64,000 nucleotides of DNA from an uncultured Pseudomonadota bacterium (GTDB lineage: Bacteria > Pseudomonadota > Alphaproteobacteria > JACZXZ01), in assembly GCA_963749075.1 (NCBI GenBank), contig CAVVLJ010000020.1, positions 128,001 to 192,000 on the forward strand, in the 5' to 3' direction. Shown here in pieces: positions 26,297-58,142 of the stretch. The notes below the pieces were generated by a model, which saw nothing but the letters and a program-made list of their open reading frames with translations, was not told the origin of the DNA and made no database searches. Both the position numbers and the translations under genes were made by a program. Position 1 is the stretch's first letter; the number at the start of each line of letters is the position of its first letter.

Positions 26297-26923
26297 TCAA
26301 TGGGCGAAGACGTCGGGCTCGTCCCAGCCGCCGAGGTCGAGCTCGGCGCGCGCCGGCAGGAAGGCGAAGCAGGCCTGGGCGAGCGCCTGCCGCCCCTCGC
26401 GCTCGAGCAGCGCCTCGAGCTTGTCGCGCAGCGCGTGCAGGTAGAGCACGTCGGTGGCGGCGTAGGTGAGCTGCTCCGGGCTGAGCTGCTCCGTGCCCCA
26501 GTCGGAAAGTTGTTGCTGCTTGCTGAGGTCGACGCCGAGGAGCTCGCGGCAGAGGTCCTTCAAGCTGTGGCGGTCCGTGAAGGTGCGCGCGAGCTTGGAG
26601 GCGATCTTTGTGCAATAGACCGGGCGGCAGGCGACGCCGAGGTAGCAGCGCAGCGCCGCGAGATCGAAGCGCGCGAAATGGAAGAGCTTGACGACCGCGG
26701 GGTCGGTGAGGAGCGACTTCAAGTTGGGCGCCTCGTAGCGGCCGCGCGCGAACTGCACGACGTGGCAGACGCCGTCGCCGGCCGAGAGCTGCACGAGGCA
26801 GAGCCGGTCGCGGCGCGGCAGCAGCCCCATGGTCTCGGTGTCGATCGCGACGATCGGGCCGAGCGAGAGGCCGCCGGGAAGGTCGCCCTGATGCAGTCTG
26901 GTCTGCGGCTGGGAGCTGCTCAT
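26297..26923 (-). CDS. rnd: Ribonuclease D (3'-5' exonuclease)
   Basis: AIDTETMGL, FHFARFD, CTKIAS, SDW, YAATDV. Confidence 0.9.
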   Translation of the reverse strand: MSSSQPQTRLHQGDLPGGLSLGPIVAIDTETMGLLPRRDRLCLVQLSAGDGVCHVVQFARGRYEAPNLKSLLTDPAVVKLFHFARFDLAALRCYLGVACRPVYCTKIASKLARTFTDRHSLKDLCRELLGVDLSKQQQLSDWGTEQLSPEQLTYAATDVLYLHALRDKLEALLEREGRQALAQACFAFLPARAELDLGGWDEPDVFAH

Positions 26924-50989: not shown

Positions 50990-51079
50990 GGAGGGATGGC
51001 CGAGTGGCTTAAGGCGCACGCTTGGAAAGCGTGTTTAGGGGAAACCCTAACGTGGGTTCGAATCCCACTCCCTCCGCCA
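50990..51079 (+). tRNA. tRNA-Ser(GGA)
   Basis: GGAGGGATGGCCGAGTGG..CACGC TTGGAAA GCGTG..long arm..GGTTCGAATCC..GCCA, 90 nt. Confidence 0.97.
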
Positions 51080-51170
51080 CCCTTCGCCCTTCGGGCTACG
51101 GGTGGCAGGCCATTGTGAGATCGGTGGGGCGAAGGGTGTCTCCCGAAGCTCCGCAGGAGCGTAGGGAGAC
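51076..51170 (+). repeat. Structured palindrome doublet between tRNA-Ser and the GIY-YIG gene
   Basis: GCCACCC-TTC-GCCCTTCGGGC-TAC-GGGTGGC and GTCTCCC-GAA-GCTCCGCAGGAGC-GTA-GGGAGAC. Confidence 0.7.
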
Positions 51171-51179
51171 TGCTGCCGC

Positions 51180-51455
51180 GTGTGGTACGTGTATTTCCTT
51201 GAACTGAGAAACGGCGACACCTACGTCGGATCAACGAACGATCTTCGCCGACGCTTCAACTCTCACCAGAGCGGGCACGTCGATTCGACCCGCAATTACC
51301 TGCCAATAATTCTGAGGTCGTATATAGCGGTCACTGAGGAAGGGACAGCACGGAGGCTGGAACGTTACTTCAAGACCGGTTCCGGCAAAGCCTTTGCGAA
51401 AAAGCGACTTCTGGAGCAGCACTCACGACTCGCCATGGCTTCCGGGACAAAATGA
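51180..51455 (+). CDS. Small GIY-YIG nuclease family protein
   Basis: WYVYFL..YVGSTNDL.RR..H..A..LE.YFK.GSG. Confidence 0.9.
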   Translation: MWYVYFLELRNGDTYVGSTNDLRRRFNSHQSGHVDSTRNYLPIILRSYIAVTEEGTARRLERYFKTGSGKAFAKKRLLEQHSRLAMASGTK

Positions 51456-57038: not shown

Positions 57039-57138
57039 CCCCCCTCCCCAACCCTCCCCCTCATGGGGGGAGGGGGCTACGCGCTGAGCATGCTCTAAAT
57101 TTCCCTTCCCCCCTTGAGGGGGAGGGTAGGGAGGGGGG
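57039..57138. repeat. Inverted doublet of CCCTCCCC REP-like palindromes
   Basis: CCCCCTCCCCAACCCTCCCCCTCATGGGGGGAGGG / CCCCCTTGAGGGGGAGGGTAGGGAGGGGG. Confidence 0.8.
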
Positions 57139-57161
57139 TATGTCCGCAACAATGGCGAGCC

Positions 57162-58142
57162 CTATGGCAATAGGATGCTGCTCCCCATCGTGCGCCGGGC
57201 TTGCAGGTCGGCATGCGCGCGCGCGGCTTCGGCGAGGGGGTAGCGGCGGCCGACCTCGACCTTGACGATGCCGGCGGCGAGAGCTGCGAAGAGCTGACGC
57301 GCGCGCTCGAGGAGCTCGCCCCGCTCCGTCGTATGGCTGACGAAGGCAGGGCTCGTCACATAGAGCGAGCCGAGCCCGTTGAGCCGGAAGAGATCGAAGG
57401 GCGGGATCGGCCCCGAGGCCGTGCCGAAGGAGACGAGGAGGCCGCGCGGCGCCAGCGACCGGAGCGAGCCCTCGAAGCTGTCCAGGCCCACCGAATCATA
57501 GACGACCGCGACACCCTTGCCGCCGGTCAAGCGCCTGACGGCCGCGGCAAAGTCCTCCTTGGCGTAGAGGATCGTCGCGTCGCAGCCGTGCCGGCGGGCC
57601 GCCGCCGCCTTCTCCTCGCTCCCCACCGTGCCGATGACGCGCGCGCCGAGATGCTTCGCCCATTGGCAGAGGATGCTGCCGACCCCGCCCGCCGCGGCAT
57701 GGACGAGGATGGTGTCGCCCGGCTTCACTTCATAGGTGGTGAAGAGGAGGTAGTGGGCGGTAAGCCCCTTCGTCATCAGAGCTGCGGCGAGCTCCTCGGA
57801 GATGCCTGCGGGAAGCGGCACCAGTCGCTCCGCGGGCATGGTGCGGAGATCGGCGTAGGCGCCCACGGGGAGGGACGAGTAGGCCACGCGGTTGCCGGGC
57901 GAGAGCTCCGCGACCTCGGCGCCCACCGCCTCGACGACGCCGGCCGCCTCGGTGCCGATGGGCGACGGGTAGGCGGGCAAGGGATAACGGCCGCTCCTGT
58001 GCTGGATGTCGATGTAGTTGAGGCCGACCGCGGTCTGCCGGATGAGCACCTCGCCTGAGCCCGGCGCTGGCGCCTCGCAAGGCTGGTAGCGCAGGACCTC
58101 GGGCCCTCCCGGCCGCGCAATGGTCACCCGATTGGCGCGCAT
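57162..58142 (-). CDS. NADPH:quinone oxidoreductase (zeta-crystallin type)
   Basis: GGPEVL, GLNYID, HAAAGGVG, VVYDSVG. Confidence 0.92.
   Translation of the reverse strand: MRANRVTIARPGGPEVLRYQPCEAPAPGSGEVLIRQTAVGLNYIDIQHRSGRYPLPAYPSPIGTEAAGVVEAVGAEVAELSPGNRVAYSSLPVGAYADLRTMPAERLVPLPAGISEELAAALMTKGLTAHYLLFTTYEVKPGDTILVHAAAGGVGSILCQWAKHLGARVIGTVGSEEKAAAARRHGCDATILYAKEDFAAAVRRLTGGKGVAVVYDSVGLDSFEGSLRSLAPRGLLVSFGTASGPIPPFDLFRLNGLGSLYVTSPAFVSHTTERGELLERARQLFAALAAGIVKVEVGRRYPLAEAARAHADLQARRTMGSSILLP

Follow-up and report, generated by a model that had tools for sequence, protein, structure and literature searches.

Palindromic leaders and small GIY-YIG nuclease genes docked at the 3' ends of bacterial tRNA genes suggest an undescribed small element

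Free-standing GIY-YIG homing endonucleases of the T4 Seg and I-TevI type are encoded by compact, selfish-looking genes that occupy intergenic positions beside conserved genes. SegB is connected with tRNA loci in the accessible text of one report (PMC13096335). We analyzed a 64,000-nucleotide stretch of DNA (the window) from an uncultured alphaproteobacterium of the JACZXZ01 lineage (assembly GCA_963749075.1, contig CAVVLJ010000020.1, positions 128,001 to 192,000). It contains a gene for a stand-alone GIY-YIG nuclease domain behind a tRNA-Ser gene, and the two are joined by a palindromic leader that starts directly after the CCA end of the tRNA. The locus belongs to a family of cassettes of approximately 350 bp, each consisting of a palindromic leader and a GIY-YIG gene at the 3' end of a tRNA gene. 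In the standard form, a leader of roughly 90–130 nt is followed by the gene for a GIY-YIG domain of about 82 amino acids, on the same strand as the chromosomal tRNA gene. The cassette has the GIY-YIG catalytic domain and the compact intergenic setting in common with homing endonuclease genes. It also resembles them in having a GC content under that of the host and occasional decayed copies (3 of 80 loci). It differs from them in its small protein (82–91 amino acids), which lacks a DNA-binding domain, and in its location on alphaproteobacterial chromosomes, with no copy in the collections of 72,556 plasmids and 50,697 phage records that were searched. Further differences are the structured leader fused to the tRNA CCA, the long vertical inheritance and the purifying selection.

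The closest solved relatives of the protein are UPF0213 proteins of the prokaryotic Slx1-like kind, BH0048 (1zg2) and EF2693 (1ywl). They are also stand-alone catalytic domains of about 80–100 amino acids; however, the sequence similarity is weak, and neither docking at tRNA genes nor a palindromic leader is described for them in the literature searched. In the accessible sections of one survey, stand-alone prokaryotic Slx1-like domains are called the minimal form of the GIY-YIG fold (PMC1564403). The same sections describe Slx1-like domains fused to a TrmH-like tRNA methyltransferase and recurrently located beside COG4123 methyltransferases, and the authors suggest a link of the prokaryotic domains to RNA metabolism (PMC1564403). 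Three small COG2827 genes, one of them with an SOS box, are mentioned for Caulobacter in the accessible part of another report (PMC1839093). Structured RNA elements at tRNA 3' ends have a precedent in the theta (HDV-like) ribozymes of gut phages, whose 5' end lies at the tRNA 3' end and for which a role in 3' maturation is proposed in the part of the source available (PMC10879173). The leader similarly begins at the tRNA 3' end, but it matches no ribozyme family in Rfam 15 searched with E up to 10 (four other matches, all far below their gathering scores, lie on or just before the tRNA). It differs further in consisting of plain hairpins (no pseudoknot was seen, and none was sought) that precede a protein gene on a bacterial chromosome.

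The tRNA 3' end is also the landmark of integrating islands and prophages, and such islands have entered the same tRNA genes as the cassette (loci L012, L073, and L027). However, the cassette carries neither an integrase nor a direct repeat, measures 0.35 kb instead of many kilobases, and has its junction after the CCA rather than inside the tRNA. With REPIN-RAYT systems it shares inverted pairs of palindromes that fold into a long hairpin, and a nuclease-type gene in single copy that is passed on vertically and maintained by selection, as RAYT genes are described in the accessible parts of their literature. It differs from these systems in its enzyme, which is a GIY-YIG protein and not a Y1/HUH transposase (Pfam matches are GIY-YIG and a sub-threshold T5orf172), and in its palindromes, which occur only upstream of the gene and at tRNA ends, whereas those of REPINs are dispersed in tens to hundreds of copies. 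IS200/IS605 elements have sub-terminal hairpins, make no target duplication, and insert 3' of a short fixed target that serves as their left end. The cassette has comparable features, namely hairpins instead of terminal inverted repeats, no target duplication, and a fixed target that joins the left end. Unlike these elements, it lacks TnpA and usually a right-end hairpin, and its target is the tRNA 3' end instead of a tetra- or pentanucleotide at any position; a mechanism of the same kind is hypothetical. In Rfam and in the full-text literature, with subscription journals and supplements outside the search, we found no account of a small GIY-YIG gene or a palindromic leader that adjoins the 3' end of a bacterial tRNA.

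In the window, the partner tRNA gene is an intact tRNA-Ser(GGA) at 50990–51079 on the plus strand (ARAGORN; Rfam tRNA, 60.9 bits), with an encoded CCA that ends at 51079. The cassette comprises 376 bases from 51080, directly after this CCA. The last four bases of the tRNA, G73 to A76 (51076–51079), double as the start of the first arm of the leader, as the original prediction had stated for the GCCA end. The layout is a four-arm palindrome (51076–51138), hairpin 2 (51138–51170), and the gene for 91 amino acids (51180–51455), all on the plus strand. Arm A1 (GCCA followed by CCCTTCGCCC, 51076–51089; inverted repeats I4 and I5) supplies the left arm of hairpin 1 and, from 51078, also the 5' strand of a 12-bp long-range helix. 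Arm A2 (GGGCTACGGGTGGC, 51093–51106), identified from the inverted repeats and the leader alignment, is the right arm of hairpin 1, and in most relatives it pairs with arm A3. The palindrome centre and arm A3 occupy 51107–51126 according to the predicted folds and the leader alignment. Arm A3 is degenerate in the window, where the predicted fold leaves only a 5-bp apical stem. Arm A4 (GGGCGAAGGGTG, 51127–51138; inverted repeat I5) is the perfect complement of 51078–51089 and, paired with it, closes the long hairpin at the tRNA bases C75 and A76.

Hairpin 1 reads GCCACCC-TTC-GCCC-TTC-GGGC-TAC-GGGTGGC from G73 (51076), and its 14-nt arms (51076–51089 and 51093–51106) are 86% complementary. Hairpin 2 reads GTCTCCC-GAA-GCTCC-GCA-GGAGC-GTA-GGGAGAC, with an outer stem of 6–7 bp, a 3x3 internal loop (GAA/GTA), an inner stem of 5 bp, and a loop of 3 nt in the inverted repeats and the fold. 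Its arms (51138–51152 and 51156–51170) are 87% complementary, and it was found once in the window at up to three mismatches, against an expectation of 0. The predicted mutually exclusive pairing is present as well: CACCCTTCGCCC (51078–51089) is 100% complementary over 12 nt to the arm at 51127–51138. This 12-mer has four matches in the window at up to one mismatch (0.62 expected; 0 of 100 shuffles reach four), and the two exact matches are arms A1 and A4 themselves. The complementary CTTCGGG (51089–51095) and CCCGAAG (51141–51147) also occur, and thus the tRNA, the hairpins, the pairings, and the reading frame all lie where the original prediction had placed them. The 96-nt leader has a folding energy of −55.9 kcal/mol (z = −4.65), and none of 200 shuffled sequences folds equally well. 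However, its minimum-energy fold combines the 12-bp long-range pairing with a separate hairpin 2 and omits hairpin 1; the preferred partner of arm A1 is therefore arm A4.

The association with tRNA genes is general in the family. We compared 80 cassette loci, the best of 205 confirmed stretches from one scan of 185,579 species genomes; the sample is biased to close relatives, mostly Alphaproteobacteria. ARAGORN placed a same-strand tRNA gene directly upstream in 60 of the 80 loci, with 12 anticodon species among the partners. These are Ser-gct (32), Ser-cga (9), Ser-gga (4), Ser-tga (3), Arg-cct, Asp-gtc, Ala-cgc, and Val-tac (2 each), and Val-cac, Val-gac, Glu-ttc, and Met-cat (1 each). Serine tRNAs, which have acceptor and T-arm sequence in common, account for 48 of the 60 partners. 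The acceptor stems of the Val, Ala, Asp, Glu, Arg, and Met partners are intact and native. In 59 of the 60 loci, all except L047, the sequence (C/T)CCT(A/T/G)CGC begins directly after the CCA. The distance from the tRNA end to the start codon is 66–209 nt, except for 790 nt in L001, where a tandem leader array widens the gap. Only four other tRNA genes were found in all the flanks, which amount to roughly 500 kb; the adjacency is therefore far beyond chance. A tRNA-SeC(tca) was called by ARAGORN in L003 (3001–3088), about 700 nt upstream of the tRNA-Ser(gct) that bears the cassette. The counts bear out the proposed enrichment at tRNA ends, and with it a compact module of nuclease and structured nucleic acid tied to them.

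Most of the 20 loci without a called tRNA gene are not exceptions to this layout. In 12 of them, the junction of CCA and leader is still present behind a cut, masked, or damaged tRNA or a 3' fragment of 6–15 nt. The T-arm and acceptor end are contig-cut, N-masked, or damaged in five, a 3' fragment of 14–15 nt is kept in four, and only the terminal GCCA remains in three. The upstream sequence of the other eight is too short or rearranged. Six of the tRNA-less loci have 4 kb of upstream sequence, and four of these, which retain only a fragment of the tRNA 3' end, carry genes of another mobile element there, directly ahead of the cassette. P4-type tyrosine integrases lie beside the tRNA fragment in L012 (2447–3751, minus strand) and L073 (2507–3715, minus strand), prophage capsid and ClpP genes lie upstream in L027 (240–2443, minus strand), and a DDE transposase gene does so in L005 (876–2216, plus strand). 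In these loci a later insertion evidently split the tRNA, and the integrases there belong to other elements inserted upstream, not to the cassette. Contig ends are frequent within or just before the leader or the tRNA. In addition, two unrelated contigs (L035, 1–100; L064, 1–60) have one IS-like terminal sequence in common, which borders or breaks into the first leader arms.

The leader is conserved together with this position. In the 80 upstream regions and an alignment of 28 leaders, the four arms can pair according to two schemes, A1:A4 with A2:A3, or A1:A2 with A3:A4. The A1:A2 and A3:A4 hairpins each carry a 3x3 internal loop. Hairpin 1 is a reverse copy of the unit CCC-GAA-GC...GC-GNA-GGG, whereas A3/A4 and hairpin 2 are forward copies. 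The structure had been described as a palindrome doublet; a conserved and covarying doublet exists, but the palindromic unit is in fact present three times, twice in forward and once in reverse orientation. A survey of predicted folds for 29 non-redundant leaders gave a long helix of 19–30 bp, which has A76 of the tRNA as its first paired base in 26 of the 29. All four arms of L011 pair perfectly in a hairpin of 29 bp (z = −12). Hairpin 2 keeps its GAA / G-N-A internal loop while its stems covary.

Covariation was evaluated in two alignments. A MAFFT alignment of 28 non-redundant leaders has 87.6% and 92.8% of cells paired in the two schemes, compared with 39–53% when the partners are slid, and 9 of 33 pairs change on both sides. 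A second alignment places 65 distinct leaders on a covariance model, and since it is fitted to the structure it favours pairing; it has 92.5% of cells paired, compared with 46–52% with partners slid. Here, compensatory changes affect 13 of 33 base pairs, and none of the five measures is matched by any of 500 shuffles. The clearest covarying pairs are the middle one of A1:A4 (AU 34, UA 15, GC 3) and one in the inner stem of hairpin 2 (CG 33, AU 19, GC 6, UA 1). The covariance expected of homologous upstream regions was thus found. In a comparison of RNA and DNA strands, the leaders contain 70 G-U and 50 A-C mismatches, a difference that does not clearly favour either as the selected form.

The covariance model was run over 602,364 bases, comprising the window and the flanks of the fetched loci. 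It scores 107 bits at the window cassette, which is the sole strong copy in the 64 kb. Strong plus-strand matches elsewhere are cassette leaders, tandem arrays, remnants or shortened second copies, and one solo leader; minus-strand matches are the same palindromes read in reverse. A genome-wide REP-like repeat is ruled out, as no dispersed copies occur in the window or the flanks. Two intergenic hairpins of C-runs and G-runs, CCCTCCCCC...GGGGGAGGG (57040–57145), gave a weak match (18 bits, E = 0.017) but are a different palindromic element. The window hits at 26621 and 57045–57167 were rejected as leader copies and attributed to chance or a different element; all hits in the window other than the cassette score at most 18 bits. 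The solo leader (L052, 3701–3812) has no reading frame, lies behind a tRNA-Val(tac), and begins at the CCA; 28 nt past it comes a tRNA-Asp gene with its own leader and GIY-YIG gene, and the two leaders have unusual variants in common. Among non-isogenic genomes, L039 has a plain trailer at tRNA-Val, where L052 has the solo leader and L079 a full cassette; at tRNA-Asp, L039 and L052 are occupied and L079 is empty. In L001 (3254–3993), the interval from tRNA-Ser(gct) to the GIY-YIG gene holds 8.9 tandem copies (96% matches) of an 83-nt unit that consists of arm A2, the centre, arm A4, and hairpin 2. Leader arrays or remnants are also present in L049, L056, L067, L071, L075, and L080, and L049 retains ATGTGG from a deleted reading frame. 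Hairpin-1 remnants beginning with CCCT occur 4–14 nt past the stop codon in L002, L027, and L039, and L053 and L055 have longer repeats downstream of the gene. Apart from such post-gene repeats or remnants in these five loci, no right-end repeat or target duplication was found. A DNA search of the plasmids with the leader matched the tRNA portion only. A tRNA-Ser(GCT) on a chromid of Azospirillum brasilense (L081, 620–760; NZ_CP032340.1) has the CCA followed by CCCTCTCCGTTC..., a plain trailer without leader or GIY-YIG gene, and is thus an unoccupied case from a further alphaproteobacterium.

The gene at 51180–51455 starts with GTG and encodes a stand-alone GIY-YIG nuclease domain, as indicated by Pfam, the homologues, the profile match to PDB 1zg2, and the ratio of nonsynonymous to synonymous substitution rates (dN/dS). 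The Pfam GIY-YIG model (PF01541) covers residues 1–70 with E = 7.4e-12 and 45.8 bits (cutoff, 22.6), and the sub-threshold T5orf172 is the sole other Pfam match. In an alignment of 18 homologous proteins, 38 columns are invariant, including Y5, Y15, G17, R24, and E61; Y5, Y15-V16-G17, R23-R25, and E61 are invariant or nearly so, H29 is nearly invariant, and the similarity stops near residue 80. We take Y5, Y15/G17, R23-R25, and E61 to be the GIY tyrosine, the YIG motif, the arginine, and the metal-binding glutamate, respectively. The similarity to the solved structures is weak but specific (E values for 1zg2 of 6.1e-4 by single sequence and 7.9e-6 by profile, and for 1ywl of 0.16 by profile). 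Judged by its sequence, the protein is a catalytic-domain-only GIY-YIG enzyme of the prokaryotic Slx1-like or UPF0213 kind. The NCBIfam model of group I intron endonucleases (TIGR01453) scores 22 bits against a cutoff of 56, the PADLOC defence models give no family at E up to 0.01, and PHROGs gives one weak match to a GIY-YIG homing endonuclease family (E = 4e-4).

A word-indexed search gave 1,406 relatives, of which the best 120 are 77–138 amino acids long, mostly 82, with 68–85% identity. HMMER over 1.84 billion representatives found 5,018 clusters at E ≤ 0.001, 690 at 1e-10, and 27 at 1e-30. A homologue (P0058) in the ESM Atlas leads only to GIY-YIG clusters; those of 82–87 amino acids are commonest in Bacteroidota, and one has 750 members. 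Among the 22 longer proteins tabulated, 17 (169–211 amino acids) match PF01541 only, and five have a second Pfam domain at 48–68% identity. The N-terminal extensions of the database reading frames (proteins P0150–P0267) contain leader motifs in 12 of 26 cases, and two more translate the tRNA; examples of the peptides are SPEAP, GWQA, LPKL, and MAEWLKAHAWKAC. These extensions are an annotation artefact that hides the layout of tRNA, leader, and gene, and their origin extends the tRNA association to more distant family members. Gene callers that extend reading frames through the leader and tRNA, together with assembly breaks, help to explain why the arrangement may have escaped notice.

GGGAGA in the 3' arm of hairpin 2 (51164–51169) lies 10 nt ahead of the start codon in the window, and the original prediction had hairpin 2 sequester this Shine-Dalgarno sequence. 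Such sequestration is possible in the window and some other loci. Of 75 loci, 37 have a spacing of 5–12 nt, 22 (all from Mesorhizobium) one of 2 nt, and 16 one of at least 13 nt. With a range from 2 to 95 nt, sequestration is ruled out as a general rule; the hairpin-2 arm can serve as ribosome-binding site in the window but not generally. In consensus scans, the interval from the tRNA to the reading frame showed neither a sigma-70-like promoter nor a terminator; a promoter or intrinsic terminator of the leader's own was rejected on the same grounds. ARAGORN found three tRNA genes in the window, and the remaining two have ordinary trailers and no leader. The neighbours of the cassette are LepA upstream, one reading frame without an assigned family, and a convergent amino-acid ABC transporter. 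L038 likewise has LepA ahead of its tRNA-Ser(gga). None of the neighbour genes, and nothing within the cassette, encodes an integrase, and the 23-nt tRNA 3' end is found once in the window at up to three mismatches. The absence of an integrase and a duplicated attachment site was thus confirmed, and a remnant of an integrase island is ruled out.

The protein is under purifying selection, with dN/dS of about 0.1 (0.106 for 253 Mesorhizobium pairs, 0.093 for the clade of the window, and 0.111 for 1,075 unsaturated pairs). Three of the 80 reading frames are broken, after 6, 37, and 7 codons in L045, L050, and L062 (gene starts 4001, 4001, and 2035); they look like decaying copies with a leader that is still recognisable. 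The GC content of the gene is below that of its flanks in all 76 loci compared (means, 0.527 and 0.617), and in the window it is 0.536 against 0.693. A DNA tree of the gene was calculated with 78 rows, leaving out the three broken genes. In this tree, 23 Mesorhizobium sequences form a clade with a support of 99, and all those with a visible partner and downstream region, L019 apart, have tRNA-Ser(gct) or its fragment and the same downstream gene. This common setting indicates that the cassette has long been vertically inherited within Mesorhizobium. Vertical inheritance, which would have told against the prediction, therefore applies within this genus; over the family as a whole, the cassette is found behind 12 tRNA species and the doublet covaries. 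The tRNA label needs 27 changes on the tree, with 11 as the logical minimum for 12 species, and the flanking genes vary from locus to locus. L019, within the Mesorhizobium clade, lies behind tRNA-Ser(cga) with a different downstream sequence. It comes from a genome with two copies, L012 and L019, behind different serine tRNAs, and their similarity spans the T-arm of the tRNA to the stop codon and then ends.

These results suggest an undescribed small element that targets tRNA gene ends; we infer the targeting by the nuclease from position only. A homing-like selfish nuclease cassette docked at tRNA gene 3' ends is, in our estimate, an even prospect. The cassette would have no promoter of its own and would be transcribed by read-through from the tRNA promoter. 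The long hairpin from A76 and hairpin 2 may serve processing or insulation by separating tRNA maturation from the mRNA, and the leader may damp translation of a potentially harmful nuclease. A switch of nuclease translation by tRNA processing, as in the original prediction, is hypothetical. The nuclease would place or keep the cassette at tRNA gene ends by breaking the DNA of unoccupied genes at the 3' boundary of the tRNA or close to it. With repair of the break from an occupied copy, the cassette would spread between alleles in the manner of homing and on rare occasions jump to another tRNA gene. Serine tRNAs, with their common acceptor and T-arm sequence, would be the easiest to jump between.

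Several points weigh against a homing-like cassette. The GC content of the gene tracks that of the host (r = 0.66), which implies long residence, and the dS of 0.56 within Mesorhizobium, at a dN/dS of 0.1, is unlike the classic cycle of invasion and decay. The gene tree is mostly unsupported (4 of 75 inner branches are starred), and the sample covers the best 80 of 205 confirmed stretches. The protein has no match in the plasmid or phage collections, and consequently no vehicle for transfer is known. No isogenic pair of empty and occupied sites was seen among the loci compared, a dedicated search for empty sites not having been made; mobility is consequently inferred from the differing tRNA partners only. 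Co-transcription and processing of tRNA, leader, and mRNA are likewise putative and deduced from the layout. The protein (91 amino acids here, typically 82) has no DNA-binding domain, while all characterized GIY-YIG homing endonucleases, to our knowledge, have one; sequence-specific recognition of tRNA genes is thus left unexplained. Moreover, homing requires homology on two sides, and the right side of the cassette has none at a new tRNA.

The palindromes are given more weight in an alternative in which the leader would be the mobile substrate of a hairpin-guided single-stranded DNA element and the GIY-YIG protein its dedicated structure-specific nuclease, which we consider unlikely. Insertion would always occur 3' of the short target NCCA, which the folded sense strand would expose in a tRNA gene under heavy transcription, with GCCA completing the left hairpin, a step to which we give a similarly low probability. 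This explanation is consistent with a left palindrome arm that is complete only with the GCCA of the tRNA itself, and with an internal GCCACCC in arm A3 even behind tRNAs with A73. Leader units can evidently amplify, as in L001 and the six further loci with arrays or remnants, and a leader without a reading frame stands at a second tRNA in L052; however, deletion or unequal crossing-over may also produce solo leaders and arrays, as the ATGTGG kept in L049 illustrates. The CCCT remnants past the stop codon fit repeated insertion at the CCA that pushes older copies downstream, and single-copy vertical inheritance under purifying selection resembles the accessible descriptions of RAYTs. By contrast, dispersed copies are absent from the roughly 600 kb covered by the model, the two other tRNAs of the window are empty, and NCCA is far too frequent to account for the specificity for tRNA genes. 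GIY-YIG enzymes hydrolyse DNA, and we know of none that joins strands; the ligation step would thus be missing. The G-U and A-C counts (70 and 50) do not clearly point to DNA as the selected strand. In a related and likewise doubtful formulation, the cassette would be the GIY-YIG counterpart of the hairpin-guided IS200/IS605 and REPIN-RAYT systems and a new minimal class of mobile element, in which a catalytic-domain-only nuclease would recognise and mobilise a triple palindrome. It would insert after the tRNA CCA, the GCCA would complete the left hairpin, and the tRNA promoter would then be used.

Two further explanations dispense with mobility of this kind. The cassette may be a domesticated or host-neutral RNA-processing module in which either the GIY-YIG protein or an RNase of the host (RNase III, for example) would cut the precursor of tRNA, leader, and mRNA at the hairpin, but this appears improbable. 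Equally improbable is the proposal that the tRNA 3' end is freed in this way, as suggested for theta ribozymes, with RNA or tRNA as the true substrate. The leader begins at the mature 3' end, a 19–30 bp helix holds A76 of an essential tRNA that must still mature, and the loop of hairpin 2 is kept while its stems covary, all in agreement with a function in RNA. The accessible literature also links Slx1-like domains to tRNA-type methyltransferases (PMC1564403) and provides a precedent for structured RNAs docked at tRNA 3' ends for maturation (PMC10879173). However, tRNA is the sole Rfam family that matches at its gathering score, which leaves the leader without a known ribozyme counterpart, and G-U is not clearly favoured over A-C. 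RNA processing also leaves the 12 tRNA partners unexplained, as well as the absence from most genomes (205 confirmed stretches in the genomes scanned). Moreover, no GIY-YIG enzyme is known to us to cut RNA. The gene may instead be an ordinary small DNA-repair nuclease gene, COG2827- or UvrC-N-like, linked to tRNA-Ser by chance and carried passively to other tRNAs by tRNA-gene duplication, inter-tRNA recombination, or integrase-driven rearrangement; we judge this to be quite unlikely. The vertical inheritance in Mesorhizobium and the partial adjustment of GC to the host are in line with such a gene, as are the small COG2827 genes of Caulobacter, one with an SOS box (in the accessible text of PMC1839093). 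The same tRNAs are acted on by integrases (P4-type in L012 and L073; prophage genes in L027), and 48 of the 60 partners are serine tRNAs with common acceptor and T-arm sequence. Passive rearrangement would carry large flanks, whereas the unit common to L012 and L019 ends at the stop codon and the flanking genes differ among loci. Nor does it account for the start exactly after the CCA of Val, Ala, Asp, Glu, Arg, and Met tRNAs with intact acceptor stems, and it is not evident why a repair gene would need a conserved triple palindrome.

The 3' ends of tRNA genes are the classic landing sites of integrase-bearing islands and phages. If the homing-like cassette is real, a 0.35-kb element uses the same landmark with only an 82-aa nuclease domain and a folded leader. 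The maturation of an essential tRNA with a helix of 19–30 bp at its last base is a question of RNA biology in its own right. If the nuclease recognises tRNA-gene ends or the leader, the cassette might offer a very small programmable or structure-guided nuclease. Such recognition would also show how a GIY-YIG domain without a DNA-binding domain gains specificity, and it would provide a function for part of the large family of stand-alone bacterial GIY-YIG proteins.

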